Assembly: GCA_002633005.1 (NCBI GenBank)
Contig: NMRA01000132.1
Coordinates: 62,001-125,898 of the forward strand
Source: Phoronis australis
Taxonomy: Eukaryota > Animalia > Phoronida
Direction: 5' to 3'
DNA length: 63,898 nucleotides
The notes beneath the pieces are model-generated. The model made no database searches. It saw only the letters and a program-made list of their open reading frames with translations, and was not told the origin of the DNA. The translations under genes and the position numbers were made by a program. Numbering within the stretch: position 1 is the first letter of the stretch; each line of letters starts with the position of its first letter. This document shows positions 1-57,193 of this stretch, in pieces.

Positions 1-356
1 AGCACAGAACTGGGTTTATAACGGGTTTAAATGGTACTGATATCACATTGTCTCATTGTGTGACTGGTTCGACAGCAATCATTTCGGCGCCCGAATCTTC
101 AGTCGACACTTCAGCACAGATTCTTGTTCGAAGGTGTCGGGTGAATATACCATTATCGAACTACAAGTTCAGTGAAGCAAGTATATTGTACATCAGAAAT
201 TTGGAGTTGCACGGCGGAAGAAATAATTCGTGATATGGAAAACTGCCCTAGCCGAAAGCCAAACGATTATCATGGTCGCCGTCAACGGCTTGTCGGCCTC
301 ACGGCATGTTCGACATTGGCGCTGTAACCTCTGATGTTCTTATTTCTCTCTTTTAG

Positions 357-3098
357 CGTGACAGCTGAGGAAGCTCGTGGTAACTTATCCGCCACTACCG
401 TTAGCCCTCTCATCACCCCCATCCAAGGATTCTTCGTCGAATTGTTTCTCACGTTCTTCTTGGTTTTCACCATAAGTGGCGCTACTGACGACAGAAGAAA
501 TCCAGTAATGCCCTCTACTGCCGTCGGTATGGCTCTGATAACGAGCGTTCTGACTGGCGTGAGTGTCATATATACTTACAATGAAAGCACCTCTTTCGTC
601 TGAGATTTTTAAGAACGGTGGTGTTTGACGCTTACCACGACAATTGAGATTTATCTAAAAAAACAGCAACGAAATCTACCAAATGTATACCTACAATTTG
701 CTAGGCTGAGACGTGATTTTCTGCAATTATCCCCCACGGAGCAGTCGTGTTGGCAGCTGGCCAAATGCTCTGCTGACGAGTTTAATCGCACTCCATGAAT
801 CGCATAAACTTTTAAACGTATAAATTTAACTTATAACTAGAAGTTACTGACCTTGATTTCAGCGAATGTCTAAAAAAATCACAAAAACAGTGCATTTTCA
901 TTATTGTTTTATAGCTCAAGTCAAAGCTAATAATTTCTATCCCATCCAGCATTAGTGCCAAAATGCGTTTTTCGTCAGTAAAATGATGACGTTTAGAAAA
1001 TGCCACAAAATAGTTACTTTTTGGAAATGTGTTGTCATAAATACTAAATTGTAGTTTTCTATACAACAATTTGACCCAGAGAATCCATTTCTGTTGATTG
1101 ACTATGCTATGGGTAACTTTGAAGCAATCACAACACAAAAAGAATTGAAACTCTATTTTATTTTTAAAGTGTTAACTCTACATCAGTCAACCAGTGTATG
1201 CCTTTGGAAATCCTGACTTATTCATACATGCCAATGTTTGGTATTTACTGTACTGCACAGATTGTATAAATGTAAAACTATTCCAGATCGACTACACTGG
1301 AGCCAGTTTAAATCCAGCTCGTAGCCTTGGTCCTGCTGTCGTCATGGGGATATGGGACGACCATTGGGTAACTACTCGATCTAGATTTCATTTAGGCTTG
1401 GTGTAATTTCACGAACTCCGTGGGATAAGCGCTTTCGCTGTTAACGTAAGAGAGCTTGTAGGGAACCTTTTCTATGCCTTAGTGGTGTTTGCTGATTTTT
1501 TTCTACAGATATCACCAGCTACAAGTACCAAGATTTGACCGTGGAACCCAACCAGCTCGCCCCGGCTAGTAGCAATAATAAAAAGTTTGGTGCGAATGCT
1601 TATAAAAAGCCATCTCAGTGAACCAAAAGGCAAATCCTCCGCGGCACTATACGCTGTTTACTTTTGGACAATAGAAAGAGCAACAGCGACAGAATCATAG
1701 AAAATTTAAATTATAAACATGTAGCTGTCAAGATATATTAGCAACTAGATACCGGCAAAATCATGAAACTGGTTAGGTTGCATCGAAGACCATGATTTGT
1801 AACTTTTGTCACCGTTCATTTCGTAGTACAATGTATGCCCCGTAGAATTATCTGACAGTCTTGGCAAACTCTGGGGTCGACTTGTCCCAATACAAATTTT
1901 GGAACTCGGAGAGTTCTCGTAGCCCCTCTACAATGATACCACAAATCGAGTTCTCATTTCAGTGCAGGGTACATGAAACTGACCAACACTATTAGGTCTA
2001 TAGTTTTGGAAAAACGATCTATTAGTTGTCCACAGACCTCTGAATTCTTTATTCTCGTATAGGTATACTGGGCAGGACCTGTAGCTGGAGCAGTTATTGC
2101 CACCACGTTTTATCACTTCTTTCTTGCCTATAAACGACTCCCAGCAGATGGCGCCGAGGACTGTTACGAACTAGGCTCTGATCCCCCTGTAGGTAAGTAT
2201 AACTTAGATGTACAATTTATTTCACAAACCCGGCGAAAATTTCACGGAATTGTTTTTGTTTAATGAGAATTATTTCCACATATATGTTATGTCTTGACCG
2301 AGGAGAATTTCAGCAATTCTTTAAGTAAACCCATGTGTAAGGCGTTGAAAACACATTTGTTAGTTGGTTGATTAACTAAGCGTTAGTACATGAACTATAC
2401 TGCCGGCATTGGTCCAGTGGAATCTGGCTTGCATTTTTTAACATATTTCATGGCATTATTCCTGCCAAATTTGTCGGAACTCGGAATCTTGTCAAATTTG
2501 TGTCTCAATGAAGCTTTCCTAGTAAAAATTTGGCTAAACAAATACTGGGTTTATTTCAAGCAATGTTCGACATGGGACCAGCACTTTATTAATGATTGTC
2601 TTAAGTCGCAATTTTCTCGAGATCAAGTGTAGCACCAAATTAATTGTTCGATCGTCATGCCGACAGTGAAATTAGTGAGCAATTCCTCATCAATTTACGA
2701 CAAACTTCCAAGGAGCTTCTCTCAACTGTAAGCCTGCACGGACATTTTCAGTGCATTTTTTCTTAATCGATCTTGTTTTGGAGGTATTTTTGAAATACCA
2801 TTATCCTGAATTTCTCTCGGCCCACATAAACCAGTATTAATTCATACCTGGAAATGAAATACCGCGATTTTGGGCTCACATTATGATTTTCCCGCAGCTT
2901 TTCTATGATAGGAGAACTAAGTTCAGACCAATGCATGGTGCTGAATAATGGAGACAACCTTGACACTTGAACTTAATTGTTTTCACAGGTGAAACAAGGC
3001 GCGTGCTCAAGTCCCTCCTCGAAAGTCTACCGGCAGATGGCGCCCGCACAGTGAACAGTGGCAAAAAGAGGCATGAAAACATGTTACTTGAACATTAA
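357..3098 (+). CDS. Aquaporin (MIP family, classical AQP1/AQP4-like), 3' portion; 5' exons lie outside the window
   Basis: Four phase-compatible GT-AG exons: 357-558 (VTAEEARG...[25 protein letters not shown]...[13 protein letters not shown]), 1287-1367 (81 nt, [27 protein letters not shown], second NPA), 2063-2192 ([20 protein letters not shown]...), 2989-3098 ([11 protein letters not shown]...MLLEH*). The last exon is the least certain. Confidence 0.92.
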
Positions 3099-17593: not shown

Positions 17594-17701
17594 CGCAGGC
17601 GTCCTCAGCTTCTGATCGTCCCCAATACACTACATATAATACTACAACAATAGTATTATATGTAGTGTATTGGGGACGATCAGAAGGTGAGGACGCCTGT
17701 G
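17594..17701. mobile_element. Palindromic mini-MITE, 108 bp, copy 1
   Basis: Near-perfect hairpin with about 50-bp arms (CGCAGGCGTCCTCAGCTTCTGATCG...); 8-bp TSD AGTTCAGC (17586-17593, 17702-17709). Confidence 0.85.
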
Positions 17702-19446
17702 AGTTCAGCTTGGTTTCCACTGGTGAAAAAAAAGGGTCAAAAATACAAGAGAGTACAAAGTTTCTGTGCTCATCTGTAGGTCTTGTGATGTGAAATGACT
17801 CAAAACTTTTCTTTATTTGCATGCAGTTTTTGACAGAGTGAAGCCGAAAGGGTGAAGAGTCCATTGACGTGTGTTCTGATAGGAAAATCCCAATGAGAAC
17901 TGTTCAGTGCCTCCTTATTCCGACGGAACGAAAAGAGTTAATTTGTTGAACTGACGATCCCCGGAAGTAGCGCTGTTCTCGATCAGAGCCAACAAAGGAG
18001 CATCGAATTTCACTCGGGGATTCCCATTCCCGGGAGACAGAGTCTCGTCACTCAATACTTCAGTTATATACAGGTATTGGCTTGTGTCTGAGGGTTGTCA
18101 GTCGTTCTGAAAGCGTCGAGGTGAGACCTCAACAAGCTTGAAACTTCAAAAAGTGCATGCGCCCGAACAGTGAACCCGCCTCTTGAGTTGGCTGAGTGAT
18201 CGAGTGCCGGCGCCCACCCGCGCGCCGGGACCGTCCGGCCATGAGATCTCGCCGAGAGCCTGAAACATCTCTTGACGATGTGAGGTGAGTCATTTTCTGC
18301 CACTACGATATGTTTGGCTCGCTGTGCCCCCTCGGGACCGACCTCCTGGCGGGGTCCAGTCGGCCCCTCGTACGTTTGTCGGCGGGGTGAGTGACTGGTG
18401 GATATACTGATCGATCGCCTCACTACTAACCACCAAGTACGGCTGGCTGTGCCAGTAGGCCTAGAGACGATTGTCTATTGGGACTGATACACTCTACATG
18501 GTACCCAGTCGTCTGTACTGACGTGTCGAGTAGCAGCGAAGTGACTTATACCGTGCCGTTGACCGAACCGGTAGGGGGAACAATCTGAAGCCGCGTCAGT
18601 GGCGGCGGCTAGTGTTTATTGTCGATGCGGGCCGATCCCCCTGCCCTCCCCCCCTCCTCCCCTGTCGTCTGCTACACTGCACTGTTCATGGCTCCCCACG
18701 GGCTGTGCGGCACCGATCGACGGACTTGAGTATGTATAGCCGGCCGGGCGGGTTGTATCATAGTGTCCCCGCGCTCTCCGGCCAAGCCATGCACTATAGT
18801 GCCCCGACGGGTCTGAGACGTACGAGGGATAACTTTAGTCAAGGCTAGACTGGCTCCTTATACTGGTTTTTCGATTTAATTCCCGACAAAAATTGAACCG
18901 TTCAGTGGGAAATCTCTCAAGCGAAGAGGTGGGGCCTTTAATACCTCTTCATTTCAGTGCCCTCTGAAATCGCTGTCCTCTATCTCCAGTAGGCTTATGT
19001 GCCGGGGGTATTTTGGCTTTCGGAGTAAAGAAATGGCCACGATGGTTTGTGGGTCCATTGCGGCAGAGGGAGTGTCGGGCGGCTCGTCGGACTACCCATT
19101 GCCCGGCCGGTTTCCTTGAATATTACGCTGAAGTTTAGTTTGACTCAGGCACCCCTATCTAGGGTGTTGAAGAGGGCCCCTTTAGCGTGTGGAGTGGATG
19201 ACAACTCAGCAAACTTTTCAAAGCGTTAGCTGACTGGGCCGTAACCACGGTACTGTAGACTAGACTAGACTAGAATAGGTATATAGACTTTATCGTGAGT
19301 AACCAGGTCTCTACAGCTAGACTCGATCTTCAGAGCATGCGAATGCTGGTAAACAACATGTGTTTTTGTTTTTCAGAAAACAACAATAAAATAAATGCAT
19401 CGTGCCATGTATTTCAAGGAAGCCACTACACTATATTCGTGTGGAA

Positions 19447-20544
19447 ATGGATAGGACCATATTAGCCAGATATCTCAGACTGCTTCTATGTGAGTTGATA
19501 AGCCTATGGCTTGTGGTGGCTGTTCTCGTGGTTTGGATTCTTGGTTGGACCGGGTGCCTGGGAGACTTGTCGGGCAAACTGAAAGTCATTCAAAGTTATA
19601 CTGGTCTTGTAAATTCTGCGTATGGCGTATTGAATGGTATTATTTTACTTATCATTGGTTTTAGAAGCAAGCAAAAAATAACAATGCAAGCGACTCGGGA
19701 ACGAGAATGCTCTGGTCTCGTGAGACAAAATGTGAACGCAATACGTGACAACGTGGAAGAAAATGGCGAACGACTCTCACTACTTCACAATCAAGTTGGA
19801 GAACTGTACACTGCACATGCAACCACCAGTGATCACGTGATCAGTAAAATTTCTTCTACCAACGGCATGGTGAAAAATCTGCAAGTGGAACACAGTACGT
19901 TGTTTGATAACATGAGTAAGATAATTGCTCAGAATAGAGAGCTGTTACTAGGCAACAAGAAGATTTTAGAAGTCCTCGACTCACCGACTGCACCAGTACG
20001 CGTTACCAAAGACATCATTATAAGAACTGAGCCTGAACTTATTAAAATGTGTGTTGTTGGTGATGTAATGACTGGAAAAACGTGTCTGATTCACTATTGG
20101 ACAACTAACAGATTTAAAGATCACTACAGGGCTACGATTGGTGTAGATTTTGCACTGAAGAAAGTCTCAACTGACATTGGCGAAATGAATGTGCAAGTCT
20201 GGGATATAGCTGGACAAGAACGGTTTGGAAACATGATGAAGATATATATGAAAGATGCGTTATGTCTTATAATTCTGATTGATATAACTAGGGAAGGTAC
20301 GTTAGGTGGCGCCATGAATTGGTTAAAAATGTGTCAAAAATTTAATCCTCGCATTTTCCCAGTCTTCTTGCTTAATAAGATTGACATGATCAAGAACGCC
20401 CAATTGAACCGGGAGACAATAGACGAAGCCTTGAATGGTGCTCCTTGCTTCTGGGTGTCTGCTAAAACCGGAGAAAATGTAGATCATGCAATAACATTAG
20501 CTGCTTTTGGGGCGGTGGTGCGTGCCTCTGGAAATTCAAACTGA
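19447..20544 (+). CDS. Rab32/38/29-like small GTPase with N-terminal hydrophobic (TM) segments and coiled coil; intronless CDS, 365 aa
   Basis: Uninterrupted ORF from gaaATGG. G1 GDVMTGKT, switch I YRATIGVDF, G3 WDIAGQERFGNM (the WDIAGQE variant marks the Rab32/38/29 group), G4 NKID, G5 SAK. A strong acceptor tttttgtttttcag ending at 19376 suggests an upstream non-coding exon. Confidence 0.9.
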   Translation: MDRTILARYLRLLLCELISLWLVVAVLVVWILGWTGCLGDLSGKLKVIQSYTGLVNSAYGVLNGIILLIIGFRSKQKITMQATRERECSGLVRQNVNAIRDNVEENGERLSLLHNQVGELYTAHATTSDHVISKISSTNGMVKNLQVEHSTLFDNMSKIIAQNRELLLGNKKILEVLDSPTAPVRVTKDIIIRTEPELIKMCVVGDVMTGKTCLIHYWTTNRFKDHYRATIGVDFALKKVSTDIGEMNVQVWDIAGQERFGNMMKIYMKDALCLIILIDITREGTLGGAMNWLKMCQKFNPRIFPVFLLNKIDMIKNAQLNRETIDEALNGAPCFWVSAKTGENVDHAITLAAFGAVVRASGNSN

Positions 20545-22640
20545 CCGTGTTAATTCGTTGTGTACTCCAACGTACTCTAGGCTTACTATGCCAAGTTGGA
20601 ATCAACTTTCTGATGTTTTGAAATGGCAAATTTACATTTCTTGGTTGGACCTGAGACAGGCAGCTCCACTGCAAATGGTCCCTTTTATACTAAAATCTCA
20701 TGGCGACTTTGTGAACATGGATTGCATTAGCTAATTGTATCTCACTCAACATTTAATTTATTTCAGTAAGGCTTGTTATAGATATAATCGTCACAATTTG
20801 CACTGTCTGGCTTCGAAGTAAAGCCATGAAGTGCTAATACTTAGAAAGAACATGGTTGCCGGTTTATTTTCTGGTGAAATTAGATTTCACATTTATTGTG
20901 GGAATAATTATACTATTTCATTAGGTATTCTTTGGATTATTTTGTATTTGTTTTCGTGTATGTTTTGGTAAGAGTAGAGCTCATATTATCAAATGAAATG
21001 AGTCTCCATCTTGACCAGTTATAGGGACGAGAGTCAATAGCTAAAAACTAATGTCTTAAAAAAAAAACAGAATTTAAGTCAAACACTGATTGTGAACTCC
21101 GTTCTGACCAAAGATAACTATTTTATAATTGTGACTTCTGATCGTTGCCATATTGATTTTGAATCAGAAACGGCCTCAAATTTTATGAAAAAATTAAACT
21201 GTCGCTATACACCTGGAAGTAATATGCATATTGATCCTAGCTATACACAAACAAATAAATATTTTTTGTAGAACTATTTTCTGGGATCTTTTCACGTTTT
21301 ACGAAAAACACGTACATTTCATATTAAGTATTTTCAGTAAAAGTTGACCTAAATTAGTAGCATGTGATGATTGTAAAACTTTAAAGGAGTTTATGTCAGT
21401 TCCTTACTTCACGGCGGTGGCAGCGCTCGGCGGGAGTTGATTTCAAAGCCATGTAAAAACATTTTGTTACGCAATCCCACGGTATTTAATCTTACATGTA
21501 TCTACATTTACAAACGAACTTCAAATCGAACCACGGTTTTCATGTTAGGAAGCTCGACACAAGTTAATTTAATGTTGAAATTTTAGATTATTGTTGGTCT
21601 TTGCCCACTACAAATTTGCAAAGGCGCCTTTGGTTGGCAAAAAAAATGTTGCTCTTGGGTAAAACGTTACCTCTACTTAAAATTGGTGATTGAAATCCTT
21701 TTCAAATTGGATTAACTTGCTTGCATGATGTCTGCTTTATGTTTTGAAGAATATATTTGTTTTTCCCGTAAGTATTTTTTTTTCTGAATTTTGGTTGCCT
21801 CAATTTTTAGCGGTTTGGCTTCTACACAAAAGGTTCCACCGTTGAAAGTTTTCTTTTGTGTTTTATTTTGATGCCCATCGTATTTTATATGAAATAAAAA
21901 ACTAGGATTTATCGACTTCGCTTTTATGCTATTTTAGCTTAGACAGCGTCAGATAAAAATGCGCAGTCTGTGAGCGCGTCTTTCTAAATCACCGATTACA
22001 ATACCCGCAGCTGCATCTCACTAGATGGTGATTAAGTTATGTTGTTGCGGAGATAGTGAAATACGTTTACACGATGGGAACAATCTGAGACGAGAAGTTT
22101 CTTCTTTGACAATGTCAAAGGCGCAGCCAGATACTCGCCCACTTGGATTTGCCTGTAGTTTAGCATGACGTCCCGGCAGTGAAATTTCAGTTGATGTCTT
22201 GCACAACTATCAAACTCAAAAATGCCAAGCAATTATCGACTTTTTTTCAAACTATACGATCTGTTATTTGAAAAAAAAAACACAACCAAATGTTTTAGAA
22301 GTTCAATAGCCAGTGTCTTAAAACAACGGTTGTTTGTGCCTTTTCCGTGAGAAACTGTGTCGAACTCAGACTCTGTTTGGCGGGGGGGCTGAGGGGTGAC
22401 ATCATGCCAAGCTGAGTCCGTTGGATTATTAACCTGAGGAACACTTCGGGGGGGGGGGGGTGGCAATTTAAAAACAATATTCCAGGCAGTTTTACGCTAA
22501 CATTTGGGATTCTGTTACCCCAACGCCTAAGCAAGCCTAAGTCAGACCGTAATAGGCTATAACCCGTTCTCAATCGATCCACTGATGCTCGTGGCGTAGC
22601 CGCGATGCTGAAGGAAACCTATTAGGCAATTTCTCTAATA

Positions 22641-23287
22641 ATGCATCGATTTTAAAAATTCAAAGACGGCTGCTAGGCCCATATATTTTTCAATTTTAAA
22701 AACACTGAGTCATGTTGTTGGCCATTTTTTGCCTTACCAGTTTTTCCGACGTTTTTGACTTTGGAACTCATACGCTAAACACTTGCCTATAAAGCGTAAC
22801 ACTTCAGGCTTGCCTGTGTGGTAACCAACTTGGAAAGCAGTTTTCAACCTGTACAATTAAACTTGGCAGAGCATTATTTTGTTTCACTGAGAAAGAACTC
22901 GATGGTAAGGTCATTTTTAATATATAATCGCCCGAAAACCGCACTATATTAGGCAAATCTTAATACGTCAGTATAACAGCCCGGGATTTACATGCAAGTG
23001 CAGACGAGAAAGCGTGCACTATTTACCCCACCGTCCAGCGAAATCCTCGGCTCAGCATAGGCTTGATGGCGCCCGTCACGGACTGAGCTAGTCGCTAATG
23101 ATGGGTATGGCTAGTGAACGACGGTGTTGGATGACATCGACAATTGCGGTCCGACGGTCGTAAACCGCCCCTAACAGCGCACGAGTTTCAAAATCAAAAA
23201 AAGAGCAATAAGTAAGGCAATTGAACGACCAGCATGACTATTGTAAAGCAAATAGTGCTCGTCTTTGAATTTTTAAAATCGATGCAT
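22641..23287. mobile_element. MITE with 28-bp TIRs and TA TSD
   Basis: TA|ATGCATCGATTTTAAAAATTCAAAGACG ... CGTCTTTGAATTTTTAAAATCGATGCAT|TA, a perfect inverted pair. Confidence 0.75.
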
Positions 23288-23513
23288 TAGAATTAGCGAC
23301 TCGGGCATCCTACACTACACTTAGCCCTCAACTTTTCATTGCAATTCAAGGTAAGTGTCACTGTGCTCGAGTACACATGGTTCATGCATATGGGTTTCCA
23401 GTCCCATTTCGCAATTGACGAACCCTGTAGACTCAAGCTACCGAAACTTGAGAAAAAAAATATGAATTCGAGTTTACTGACTCAAGAAGCCGGGCTGGAT
23501 ACATACACGTACC

Positions 23514-23610
23514 CACAGGCGTCCTCAGCTTCTGATCGTCCCCAATACACTACATATAGTAGTATTATATGTAGTGTATTGGGGACGATCAGAAGCTGAG
23601 GACGCCTGTG
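23514..23610. mobile_element. Palindromic mini-MITE, 97 bp, copy 2
   Basis: Same arms as 17594-17701, termini CACAGG...CCTGTG; 8-bp TSD CACGTACC (23506-23513, 23611-23618). Confidence 0.85.
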
Positions 23611-32800: not shown

Positions 32801-35800
32801 CCACCTGCCGCCCTGAAGTGTTGTACCAGAGGGTTCCAGTTCAATCCCGTCCTGCAGCCATTCTATTACTGCTGATGAATTTCTGTAATTACTTCACGTT
32901 TCATCTTTTATAATTGCTAAGGGCTGTTCCAGTAAAATCCGTGTGGGAGGGGGGGGNNNNNNNNNNNNNNNNNNNNNNNNNNACGGCAGTAGAAATAAAA
33001 ATTCATGGGTGGTGGCCTTCAGAAAAAAACTCAAATTATGGTTGGTCGTTCCTGTAAGAAATGATGCATTAAAAATGAGTGGTATTTTTGACCTGTTAAT
33101 GTTGACAGGTTGGTTACTTCAGCTGTCAAAACTCAACTTATCCCAATACAAAAAAGCCCATTTTGCCAGTGAACAGAGTGTGAAATGTTCACTAAGCCAT
33201 TAATCAAGTCATGGGCAACTTGATTTGAGCCACCTGTTTGTCTGCAGTCCTATTGAATTGAAAAGTTATGCAACACTAAACTGGTGTTAACACATATAAG
33301 AAAATTTATGATTATTAAATAAAAAGTATGAGGAGTAAGATAAGCAAGTTCCAATATTCACTTGACATAGAAATATAAAAGAGTTCTTGGAGACAGTTTG
33401 AGATTCATAGATCCTTATAATTGAAAAAATGTTCATTGAAATTATAGACTCATGGTGAACAGAGACACCTGGTGGCTGCCAAAAGTATTGCTCACAAGCT
33501 ACTTTAGTTTTTAACAATATTGGACAAGACAACTAGTTCTTGTCTGTCAATCATCTAGTTCTTAACAGGTCCTCCTGGAGGCATTTTGTTTGCAAGTGTT
33601 GGATTTTATATTTTAACCTATTAAAAATAATTAAAAAATAATGGGTCATGGGTTGGAGAAATAAATGAAAAATATGGGCGGTGGGTACGAAATATAAGTG
33701 CCTTCCCCCCCCTCCCTTACAGATTTTGCTGGAACAGCCCTAAACATAAATTGAAACATCAGAACGTTCTAGAAACCATGTGTAGTTAGGTTGCAACAAG
33801 AGGGGGATTACATATTATATCAAACTTGACAAATATCCGTTGCGTTGGCGCAGTTGGATTTTGGAATTAAATGTTGAATAACGTCAGCATGAACATGTGT
33901 CTTAAAACGCTACACAATATTGCCACAAGTCAGACTTTAATAATTCTGCTAAAACTAATGATTGCCTATAGGTATTTTAATAAACACAATATACATTCAT
34001 TGACAGGCCGTAGTTTGTCAGGAAATGATGTGGTACGACGATGATAACTGGTATGGAAGCGGTAACTATCCCCTACATTTGATGTACGACGTGGCACTGA
34101 CTGAATGCATCAACCAAACATGTTGATTTTTGAAAATCCCCTCAAAAATGGACTTTTTCAAATCACCGTGTTGGCCATATTCATGTAGAAAAGCGAAATG
34201 AACAAATCTGTACACGCTGGTCAAAGCACTTTCACGTCTTTGTCTTAGAACGATGCATGTGCTTGGCATTTCTGACAAAGCACTCTCGTTCTGGAAGTTT
34301 TTAAGATTGAGCACCGTTCCAAAAATTGTAGGTCTCGTTACAGCTGACCACAGAAGAATGATTCTGCGATTTTAGGACTGAAACTGAACCAAATCTGGCG
34401 TGGTGACTCATTGGAAGGTGCGGAACTTGGGNNNGGGGGGGCAATACAAGCGTGATACAATTGTTGTTTTGGAGCCATAGTTGCCAGATATCATTCAGCG
34501 TCACTTACTACCTAATTAACTATAAACATCACCAGATGCTTTGCTTCACAAAACGTGTACCTTGGTGTATTTTCTTTCATTTTTTTCAACATCGCATTCG
34601 CTTTAACAAAGATTCACGCACAAATGCCGCATAGAGACAAACACCTCTTCACCACGTATTCGCATCTTCCCTTTCAAAATCGTTTTATTTTATACAATTT
34701 GTCAATATGTTGTTGACAGAAAATATTTGTTTTTGGAACAACGTCAACGACCAACTGATACATGTAACTAGAGCAGATTTTACCATCACCGATGCATGAA
34801 AACGGAATGCGCAAGGCTAGAATTGGTAGTAGCCTCAATAATGGTCATTCCGTGTTTGATGTCACTAAGTTCATGGAAATCGTAACCTTATGATTTCAAA
34901 GTTTGAGCCTTCCAAGTCCATGCGCTTAGGACATAAAGTTCCGTGTATTTCGCGTCTTTACTACAAGGGTTAATACTGTGAAAACAAAATCTCCGGAGTA
35001 AGACTGAGCTCTTCGGTGCAACAACTCATTCACTATCCCATCATCATGGGCGCGTGATAGGAGACCTGTGAGGAATTTTAAAAACGCAAAAATATGCAGT
35101 TCGGCGTAACACAAACAAAAAACAAGTGTTGCGAACTGCGAAGACTGTAAAAAATAGCTGCGTTTACAAAATTGCTATGGCGTTGTATTGACCGGGAAGC
35201 AGCCAGTCTAATGCAACTTGTTAATGTCACGAGCCAAAAGATCAAATGTAAAGAAAACTTTAACGTTTTGTTATCCAAAACTTGTTGCATTGTCCATAAT
35301 TGCTACTCTAGCCTAAAAATAGCAGCCGACTAGTGGGTCGGCTGATGGCCGGTCGGCAATTAAGGTCGGCTGTAGAGTCGACTGGTGGGTTGGCTTATGA
35401 GTCGACACTGCGGCCGGCTGCGGGTCGGCTAATTTGCCGACCATTCGACGGCCAGTCGTCGACTCCTAGCTGACCGGTTGGACAAAATTTCGTGATGTGT
35501 GCTGTAGCCCCTCTCCCATCATTGCAGGCATGTTTGTTGCTGCCAGTCATCTGTTGAAAGAGCCGGCCACCATTAACTACCCATTTGAGAAAGGTCCATT
35601 GAGCCCCAGGTTCCGTGGTGAGCATGCCCTGCGTAGATACCCTTCTGGAGAAGAAAGGTGCATTGCTTGTAAGCTGTGCGAGGCCATCTGCCCAGCACAG
35701 GTCAGTATGGACTTGAGTGGAGATGTTTTCTCTGAGTCTTTTATTGTCTCTAGTTATGCAGGCTTTCTTTGAGTCTTGTTTGGTCATCCAAACTGGGATT

Positions 35801-37613
35801 AGAATTTGAAACACTGCTGCGCTCAAAAGCAACAGTTTCACAATGCTGTTTTCGTTCTGTGAGGGCCAATGTCGATTGATTTCCACAGAAACTTGGAGTA
35901 AATTTATGTAGTGTTCTCTGTGATCTGTTTGATTATACCCCTGACCTGTTTAAATAGCGCGTGGCACATCCAACTTTTTATTGTGAACAAAAAAGTGTCA
36001 TTTTTGTGCGTTTGCTATGATATGCACGTGCTGCTCACTGTTTAAATTTTCAAAGCAGTTGTTAACGCGACCTGTTTTAATTTTTGAGTGCGTAGAATGT
36101 GTCATCCATTTCTGGCATAGAAATGTTGCGGGTAATTTTTAATTTACGATCCCCCGAACTGAGTGTTCTCAAAGTTTGGCACTGTGCTGTCATAGTGTAG
36201 GAGGCTGACTGCCTCTTCTGTCATCCCTTCGTCAATGTGAGTACGATAATTTCTGATGGATTACTCTGATCATCAGATATTGTTTGTATTACCTAGGCTG
36301 TTTGGGGACTGCCTGTTGGTTGGCCCTTAGCCTTTTCAAGATTTGCTATTCGTTTTATGAACCGACTTTATTTAAATAGCTCTTCATGAAATATGCAATG
36401 AAGAATTCATCAACATTAAAATTTAATAAACTAGCTTTTTATATTTGTTAAAATATTCACTGTACACTATGTTTATGACGTCTTGATTTTTTAAAGACCA
36501 CCTGGAAGAGACGCTTTTTTGCCTAAGATGATGCATCTGGTACTTTTATTCACAATTATAAATATGGTTCATGCTGTTACATGTACATAGCAATACAACT
36601 CCTGTTCTTCTATTTCACATAAAGAGTAAAGTGTCAGTGCTCACTTTGAAGAAAGGAAAAAGGCAGTATTAACAATGAAAAATACTTTGACAAGGGTACT
36701 GCTTCTTGATGAGCTGGGTGATTTGAATGACTGGAGCACTGTTATTTTGCAGGCCATCACCATAGAAGCGGAAGAGAGAGAAGATGGTAGTCGACGCACA
36801 ACCCGCTACGACATCGATATGACTAAGTGTATATACTGTGGCTTCTGTCAGGAGGCTTGCCCTGTTGACGCCATAGTTGAGGTGAGTAGTCTACAGTTTG
36901 TGTTGTTGCTGGCCATGTGACTCTTGTCTCAGCCTCTCTTGGTTTTCATGTTATGAAGATTGGTTACGAAACGTCTATATGTGACTTTTCATTGATAAAT
37001 ATTTGAAGTTCAATTTGTTTTTGCATTAATAACCTTTGATAGAAGTGATCACACATCTCCATCCACGAGTCTAGAGTGCACCTCAGTGCTTATAGAAATG
37101 AATTCCCGCTGGTGTCTGTACTCTAGGTGTCAGTGGCCCTAAGGGGATTCTAAAATCGAGCTTGTTTTTATTCGGAAAAACTGTCCTGTCTGATGACTTA
37201 ATTGTGATGTGCATAAATTTGACCATCTGCAGTGCAAAGGAACAGTAATTATTCATCACTGCCATTTATTGCAAACCTTTACATCCAGGAGGGCTACGTA
37301 TCAGCTGGTGTTAAGTTTGTCGTTTGTCTCCCGTGCAAATTCTATTGATATGACGAGAGATTGCGACATGCATGCAAGTGACTGGGCTCTGCCATTCACC
37401 ACGTTTGGCATAGACCATGAATTTTTTAGTAACTGTTTAATTTCAGCTCCTCAGTTCAATTTTGAATTTTGTTTCTTGCAGGGTCCTAATTTCGAATTTT
37501 CAACAGAAACACACGAAGAGCTTTTGTATAACAAAGAAAAGCTTCTCAAGAATGGCGACAAATGGGAGGCAGAAATAGCTGCAAACCTTCAGGCTGACCA
37601 CTTGTACAGATGA
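23814..37613 (+). CDS. NDUFS8: NADH:ubiquinone oxidoreductase core subunit S8 (TYKY), about 208 aa
   Basis: Exons 23814-23853 ([13 protein letters not shown]), 29102-29164, 30087-30176 ([16 protein letters not shown]), 35528-35700 ([22 protein letters not shown]...[14 protein letters not shown]), 36753-36881 ([18 protein letters not shown]), 37482-37613 ([22 protein letters not shown]...LYR*). All GT-AG, phases consistent, 627 nt in total; two 4Fe-4S CxxCxxCxxxCP motifs; Arg/Ser-rich transit peptide. Confidence 0.97.
25960..28775. mobile_element. Decayed TIR transposon in NDUFS8 intron 1, 4-bp TSD (superfamily uncertain, possibly Sola-like)
   Basis: Termini GGTGCATTCCACGGTATTTG / CGAATACTGTGGAATACACC; TGTT on both flanks; many subterminal GTCACATCTGTAAC motifs; stop-interrupted coding remnant near 27790-27940 (…[22 protein letters not shown]…). 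Confidence 0.65.
30470..30617 (+). repeat. Short tandem repeat, unit about 60 bp, about 3 copies
   Basis: Repeated AGAACCATAATGTGACTGCGATGTAGCCTCTCTC; the third unit is interrupted by the element starting at 30618. Confidence 0.7.
30618..35504. mobile_element. 4.9-kb non-autonomous TIR transposon with TA TSD in NDUFS8 intron 3
   Basis: TIR CAGCACACATCACGAAWTTTTGTCCRACCGGTC at both ends; TA at 30616-30617 and 35505-35506; CCGAC/GTCGG subterminal repeats; removing it restores the local repeat unit GACTGCGATGTAGCC. Confidence 0.85.
32921..33740. mobile_element. Harbinger-type MITE nested in the 30618-35504 element
   Basis: TIR GGGCTGTTCCAG / CTGGAACAGCCC with 3-bp TSD TAA on both sides. Confidence 0.8.

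Positions 37614-41129: not shown

Positions 41130-57193
<16,064 letters not shown>

Follow-up and report, generated by a model that had tools for sequence, protein, structure and literature searches.

Rab biology is founded on reversible lipid anchoring and recycling by GDI, and the locus described here raises the question of whether a Rab can be built into the membrane through its own polypeptide chain. The window, by which we mean the whole stretch of 63,898 nucleotides analyzed from Phoronis australis (contig NMRA01000132.1), carries on its plus strand a single unbroken frame of 365 amino acids (19447 to 20544), in exact agreement with the one intact open reading frame (ORF) of a preliminary description made from the letters alone. 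Of the 11 ORFs listed for the window, it alone both starts with ATG and exceeds 133 amino acids, and the chance that the 195 codons preceding the G domain stay free of stops is about 2e-6 at the window's base composition. We consider it very probable that the encoded protein is an integral-membrane, non-prenylated Rab, and the features on which this reading rests are collected in Table 1.

Table 1. Features of the TM-anchored Rab gene and of the surrounding window
Feature	Position	Strand	Basis
Upstream exon, presumed non-coding	18106..18284	+	X4 stranded reads; consensus donor GAG/GTGAGT at end
5' leader intron, GT-AG, 1092 bp, inferred	18285..19376	+	no reads; polypyrimidine tract and CAG acceptor
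Upstream ORF, 19 codons, different frame, overlaps main ATG	19395..19454	+	sequence
Coding sequence, single exon: TM hairpin, stalk, and Rab32-family G domain, without C-terminal Cys	19447..20544	+	
TM1, aa 12-35, invariant E16	19480..19551	+	hydropathy in 4/4 members, AF2 helix, invariant columns
TM2 (aa 51-72) and basic patch RSKQK (aa 73-77)	19597..19677	+	hydropathy; predicted self-interface
Coiled-coil stalk, aa 78-178, C-end formed by conserved QN[RK]x...L.SP.[AS]P motif	19678..19980	+	heptads, alignment, model
Acidic-dileucine-like ExxxL[LIV], aa 87-92, candidate lysosomal/LRO sorting signal	19705..19722	+	4/4 members
Flexible linker, aa 179-197	19981..20037	+	pLDDT <50 at aa 181-192
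Rab32-family G domain, aa 198-362, with HYRATIGVDFALK and WDIAGQERFGNM	20038..20532	+	
3' UTR, unbroken from coding exon; AATAAA at 21254 and 21893	20545..21900	+	X4 reads
Aquaporin (MIP) exons	328-1403	+	
NDUFS8 exons	35470-36917	+	
S6 kinase exons	44084-46995	-	
Low-scoring tRNA-like matches, 247 nt apart	43669-43741, 43916-43988	+	

The GTPase part of the protein (Pfam Ras, aa 200 to 351, E = 1.8e-31) retains all five motifs reported for it, namely, G1 (GDVMTGKT), G2 (T230), G3 (DIAGQ), G4 (NKID), and G5 (SAK). Behind G5 there follow 25 residues without Cys, whereas five canonical controls of the Rab32 family have 49 to 54 residues there and end in Cys (one other control, P0223, is an isoform without the terminal Cys), and this accords with the described lack of a hypervariable tail and of a CC or CxC motif. 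Compared with a typical Rab, G1 to G5 and the Rab fold are present and the hypervariable tail with its prenylated Cys is absent. Without a Cys, modification by REP and GGTase-II and extraction by GDI are implausible.

The available part of PMC4728774 gives FALK as a mark of Rab32, Rab38, Rab29, and Rab32LO and YxxTIGVD and DIAGxERFGxMTR as the switches of Rab32/38. In the window protein, FALK follows switch I, and both switch I (HYRATIGVD) and switch II (DIAGQERFGNM) fit the Rab32/38 consensus, with MK in place of TR; they do not fit Rab29 or Rab32LO as aligned in the accessible portion of supplement file 3 of that paper. At the two switch II positions where Rab32LO (Rab32B) is marked by His, the window protein has Q and N. 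FALK is altered in the other three of the four family members described below and occurs in none of 14 Rab7-motif domains. By sequence, the best solved relatives of the G domain are Rab32, Rab38, and Rab29; the beta2-beta3 hairpin is shorter in the window protein, and SAKTGENV stands in place of SAKENINI. Of the 10 VARP-contacting residues of Rab32 listed in the available part of PMC7779776, the window protein keeps eight unchanged and has conservative substitutions at the remaining two, and the counts across the four members are 8, 6, 7, and 2. The position of R93 is occupied by K in all four members, and the catalytic Gln is retained in two. Partners and kinetics have thus probably drifted, as the uneven VARP contacts, the R93K change, and the lost catalytic Gln suggest.

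Expression was assessed with a sample of about 18 to 19% of each of three raw-read RNA runs, chosen by species label. Reads of run X4 cover all bins from 19264 to 21965, with a depth of 6.5 to 15 in the coding bins, and their first mates map to the minus strand, which, as in most stranded libraries, indicates plus-strand RNA. Reads of X2 are thin over the frame and those of X3 lie on the G-domain part only, so the end-to-end cover of the frame comes from one of the three raw-read runs at a depth of about 6 to 15. X4 thereby spans the whole frame, and no splice joint inside the frame or at its end is among those listed. A spliced-on Cys tail was looked for, and none is listed: X4 reads pass the stop into the 3' UTR (depth of 4.6 to 7.9 over bins 20615 to 21579, then declining), and no GTRAG donor is present in 20301 to 20700. 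Upstream of the frame, the bin 18106 to 18298 has reads in X4 only (depth of 3.8), and the bins from 18299 to 19263 have zero reads in all four runs; from this gap and the consensus GT-AG ends, we infer the leader intron and its 18284/19377 joint. The upstream ORF, which has two ATGs, may dampen translation of the main frame, judging from its position in the sequence. At least nine variants lie within the ORF, and the split among those listed (five synonymous and four non-synonymous) is uninformative as to dN/dS. Over 19810 to 19997, in the stalk region, contig 6 of X1 and partly X2 carry a diverged copy or allele with 15 differences in 188 bases, which may be a recent paralog.

Searches for the full architecture of TM segments, coiled coil, and Rab domain returned three full-length relatives, two of them in Lingula. 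P0002 (an ENA record) matches at 41% over 95% and was the one full-length relative among 120 matches listed from 5.8 billion proteins, and a full HMMER pass through 1.84 billion representatives yielded, within the 150 best matches listed, P0123 and P0124, which are Lingula anatina XP_013389542.1 (auto-named 'SEC4') and XP_013418664.1 (auto-named 'Rab-7a'), respectively. The four members have a common layout and align from the first module to the last (the aligned G4 of P0002 is NKID), and Cys is absent after G5 in all four. Their conserved N-terminal modules of membrane segments and stalk, 145 to 195 amino acids long, are 32 to 44% identical, with all six pairs scoring above 500 of 500 local shuffles, and the hairpins alone are 27 to 49% identical. 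A profile of the N-terminal module matches only the four members among 348 proteins fetched. As judged from these alignments, the architecture is that of a conserved family and not a chimera. Word-based searches missed P0123 once and P0002 once, though both were in the query, and the family range is therefore a lower bound. No relatives were found in the viral or metagenome contigs searched, genome contigs gave only two weak matches of 36 to 41 amino acids around G4/G5, and the window holds no second copy of the gene. Lingula carries an ordinary Rab32 (P0070) as well, which indicates that the TM-anchored family is an addition and not a replacement.

These relatives bear directly on the possibility that the frame is an artifact or a dead chimera, either a Rab retrocopy that joined unrelated upstream sequence in frame or a lone exon to which a Cys tail is spliced farther on. 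The two introns that animal Rab32/38 genes have in common, according to the available part of PMC4728774, are absent from the single-exon coding sequence, as such an origin would predict; nevertheless, three independent full-length homologs have the same fusion and no Cys, and the transcript evidence given above runs straight through the stop codon, so that we find this explanation barely credible. The intronless frame suggests instead that a retroposed copy was fused with a membrane module.

Four other proteins (P0229, P0258, P0248, and P0220) each combine Rab domains with a hydrophobic N- or C-terminal stretch, and P0229 has an N-terminal anchor, two G domains, and a kinase-like tail. All four are without the N-terminal module of the family and are possibly independent TM-anchored Rabs or proteins with mis-predicted ends.

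Hydropathy analysis recovered both of the hydrophobic stretches first noticed in the frame. TM1 is strong in all four members (Kyte-Doolittle 19-mer of 2.68 in the window protein), and TM2 is marginal at 1.89, compared with at most 1.43 in the G domains and at most 1.24 in eight ordinary Rab32/29 proteins; its crude dG is +0.6 to +3.0. The 15 residues following TM2 include 5 to 7 K/R in all four members. Basic residues mark the cytosolic side of a TM segment (the positive-inside rule), and the stalk and G domain should therefore be cytosolic. A single-pass protein, with TM1 as a cleaved signal or the sole span and TM2 as an amphipathic surface helix, would in most versions likewise have a cytosolic G domain, and the marginal TM2, which in part of the family contains Pro, Lys, or Asn, could be taken in its favor; however, TM1 exceeds 20 residues and is conserved in sequence, unlike signal peptides, and a second span agrees with both the basic residues behind TM2 and the packing of TM2 in register in the models below, which makes the single-pass topology quite improbable in our judgment. 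With regard to known domains, the N-terminal module has only sub-threshold matches in Pfam and NCBIfam, no usable feature match in the Atlas, and only weak coiled-coil matches in the PDB (best E of 0.013). Since the anchor is conserved in all four members, none of which has a Cys after G5, and the tail is missing, the proposal that an N-terminal hairpin replaces prenylation is the natural reading.

The stalk was described as about 90 amino acids of heptads. It measures about 100 amino acids in the window protein, where the heptad signal lies above 2000 of 2000 shuffles at aa 78 to 123 and reaches p = 0.02 at aa 130 to 178, so the heptads are real in this protein, whereas the three relatives have only about 55 to 66 amino acids and weaker heptad signals (p = 0.036, 0.145, and 0.164). 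An AF2 model built on a 58-row alignment (mean pLDDT of 84.5) contains three helices (2 to 34, 42 to 123, and 130 to 178), a disordered linker at 181 to 192, and a G domain of Rab fold (pLDDT of 86 to 98 per block, rmsd of 1.3 to 2 A on Rabs). A model from 2 sequences was poor (pLDDT of 46) and was discarded.

In models of three copies of aa 1 to 195, the chains lie parallel and in register in a bundle held through TM2 and aa 88 to 177, with a predicted self-interface that takes in aa 52 to 74 and with a contact agreement of at least 67% and a pLDDT of at least 69 across the runs. The self-association score was 0.67, versus 0.00 for the best of 3 controls. Among solved structures from microbes, 21 of 30 self-pairs and 0 of 23 single chains attain this mark; for eukaryotes, the figures are 17 of 29 self-pairs (7 of 16 in animals) and 0 of 30 single chains. 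This calibration applies to two copies, the model having three by the analyst's choice; besides, coiled coils may pass such a test from the memory of the predictor. The stalk and TM2 are thus predicted by modelling to form a parallel homo-oligomer. A GTPase, a helical stalk, and a TM hairpin are superficially also the parts of an atlastin-like fusogen, in which GTP-driven pairing of G domains draws two membranes together. In the window protein, however, the G domain has the small Rab fold and is not dynamin-like, the parts come in reverse order, the disordered linker uncouples the G domain from the stalk, and the family does not conserve the catalytic Gln; we therefore regard fusogen activity as highly improbable.

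Where such an oligomer would reside may be indicated by the ExxxL[LIV] motif, which occupies the same column, 14 residues past TM2, in all four members (column-shuffle frequency of 0.013 for a motif found post hoc) and which in the window protein ends in LV and not in LL or LI. Acidic dileucine signals route membrane proteins to lysosomes and lysosome-related organelles (LROs), and the motif, in its sequence, is a candidate for a signal of this kind. Its conservation could instead stem from coiled-coil packing, in which such E/L spacing is common.

We give roughly an even chance to the reading that the protein is a fixed Rab32-type docking platform on LROs or late endosomes, with a self-associating stalk. 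Among the three roles suggested in the preliminary description (tether, fusogen-like factor, or immune decoy), the tether or platform is the one that fits best. TM1 is predicted to enter the membrane and TM2 to return, the basic patch keeping both stalk and G domain in the cytosol, and a parallel oligomer of TM2 and stalk is predicted to lift the G domains by about 15 nm (8 to 10 nm in the relatives) on a floppy linker. After insertion into the ER, the ExxxL[LIV] motif would be read by AP-3/AP-1-type adaptors, which would bring the protein to its organelle, and its location would be set through cargo sorting and not through GEF recruitment and GDI recycling. The G domain would bind GTP and switch in place, and the clustered G domains might recruit Rab32-type effectors with avidity and mark or tether carriers. 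Rab32 and Rab38 work with AP-3 and BLOCs on LROs, as stated in the available part of PMC11513930.

Hairpins with a short loop and a weak second helix are characteristic of ER proteins, and that of the window protein is of this type. Hence, the protein might stay in the ER as a resident integral-membrane Rab at ER-mitochondria or ER-endosome contacts and fix there an ER-associated, Drp1-related role, a view also favored by the association of Rab32 with the ER and MAM and by Drp1 being an ancient effector (available part of PMC4355727); the conservation of the dileucine-like motif in all four members speaks against it, and we deem it unlikely. Our preference is for the LRO or late-endosome platform. 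That the family is an ancient animal subfamily, composed of trimeric Rab32 derivatives that are delivered as dileucine-bearing cargo, act free of GDI, and serve as permanent identity marks and tethers of lineage-specific granules or LROs, is a more tentative proposal, to which we assign somewhat less than an even chance. If it is true, a Rab travelling as cargo would invert the rule that Rabs direct cargo.

Based on phylogenetic analysis with Rab7-type outgroups from metagenome loci (Rab9, Rab23, and Rab32LO being absent), the four members formed one clade in two trees (support of 99/98 and 100/99), and this clade nested in the Rab32 family (100/99 and 100/100); 30 rows were dropped from the first tree, the bootstrap of which had not fully settled, and 12 more were dropped and 3 added for the second. 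In the free trees, the group fell outside animal Rab32/38, and its sister shifted with sampling: in the first tree, it grouped on long branches with a non-animal-type Rab32 clade (98/94), and in the second, without that clade, another row was its sister (89/80). In AU tests, grouping with animal Rab32/38 (p = 0.178 and 0.158) and a Rab7 sister position (p = 0.084 and 0.072) both went unrejected, and a profile of the four members ranked Ypt7 slightly over Rab32. The designation Rab32/38-like is thus sound as far as the Rab32/38/29 family is concerned, with Rab32/38 proper as one possible parent. Since the non-animal-type clade has a differing switch II, we do not claim a transfer from protists, and viral structures match the G domain only, at no more than 28% identity, and so give no sign of a viral origin. 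A quick tree with a Ran outgroup, in which the group was drawn to the root, was set aside as long-branch attraction. P0124, alone among the four, has H/H at the columns diagnostic of Rab32LO in an otherwise degenerate switch II, which is either a coincidence or a hint at the parent lineage.

The branches of the family are long, in contrast to the near-static canonical Rab32, and this is one of several observations compatible with an immune decoy or sensor, that is, a fast-evolving, membrane-fixed mimic of Rab32 that absorbs or reports bacterial effectors. The two Lingula paralogs, one with degenerate switches, and the diverged stalk sequence in X1 point in the same direction, as does the targeting of Rab32 by a bacterial protease (available part of PMC7779776). 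A decoy, however, should retain the switch surface, and the family keeps between 2 and 8 of the 10 contact residues; furthermore, no immune genes are among the Pfam matches in the window, and no large expansion was seen. The decoy is thus possible but distinctly unlikely.

We compared the platform-type Rab proposed here with known proteins. With Rab32 and Rab38, which make up the Rab32A branch of the Rab32/38/29/32LO family, it has in common the G-domain fold, FALK, HYRATIGVD, QERFGNM, 8 of 10 VARP contacts, and the family placement, whereas these two have a hypervariable tail with Cys and coding introns and are without a TM hairpin or stalk. The large Rabs (Rab44, Rab45/RASEF, and Rab46/CRACR2A) likewise have a coiled coil N-terminal to the Rab domain, but EF hands are theirs only, and no TM segment is described for them in the available part of PMC7818423; none of the four family members has an EF-hand match at E up to 1, and Rab44/45 descend from the Rab8 group (available part of PMC3425129). 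RabL2, RabL3, RabL4, RabL5, and RabL6 are also without C-terminal prenylation and consist of the GTPase domain only, with no membrane insertion expected (available part of PMC7818423); to this unprenylated state, the family adds a conserved membrane module and the window protein a Rab32-type switch.

The SR-beta G domain is held by an N-terminal TM segment (available part of PMC13393502), and a hydrophobic TM segment is described, in the partial source available, as anchoring the GTPase of Miro. Both belong to GTPase families different from that of the window G domain, with Z scores of 17.8 for SR-beta and 18.0 to 20.6 for Miro versus 25 to 26 for Rabs, and the SRPRB profile matches two of the four members at E of 0.037 only. 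To our knowledge, neither SR-beta nor Miro has a hairpin-plus-coiled-coil stalk. In the engineered Ypt1-TM2p (Ossig 1995; available part of PMC2175085), a TM anchor replaces prenylation, and the protein is functional and not extractable by GDI; the GDI independence of the window protein would follow by analogy. Ypt1-TM2p is, however, artificial, with a C-terminal single span and no stalk, whereas the family described here is natural and has an N-terminal hairpin with a stalk.

No TM-anchored Rab appears in the available parts of two Rab surveys (PMC7818423 and PMC3425129), and the hairpin-stalk-Rab architecture is unmentioned in those of PMC11513930, PMC4355727, PMC5608401, and PMC9703636 and undescribed in the full-text literature searched, most subscription papers lying outside it. 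The architecture had not been recognized at the outset, and we likewise found no named family for it in this literature, Pfam, or NCBIfam; hairpin-stalk proteins of the Rab32 family are apparently new to the literature. The window protein lacks the prenylation of a typical Rab and probably acts as a Rab32 would if it were held at one site. Conserved, natural TM-anchored Rabs make it possible to test directly what purpose the GDI cycle serves and how a Rab is localized free of GDI, and the clustering of three G domains on a stalk offers a test of whether a switch becomes a tether. Database names conceal such proteins, the Lingula members being filed as SEC4 and Rab-7a.

The NDUFS8 and S6 kinase exons of the window have an animal-like character, in an intron-rich eukaryotic setting. 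Around the gene, a palindromic, MITE-like element of about 100 bp occurs at 17596 to 17699 and 23511 to 23610, flanking the transcription unit, and the window has no further copy of it. A target-site duplication common to the outer ends of both copies was not seen, and the two are therefore probably independent insertions. A second MITE-like element (22639 to 23289) is bounded by perfect terminal inverted repeats of 30 nt that lie 591 nt apart. The two tRNA-like matches farther downstream are perhaps tRNA-derived repeats.
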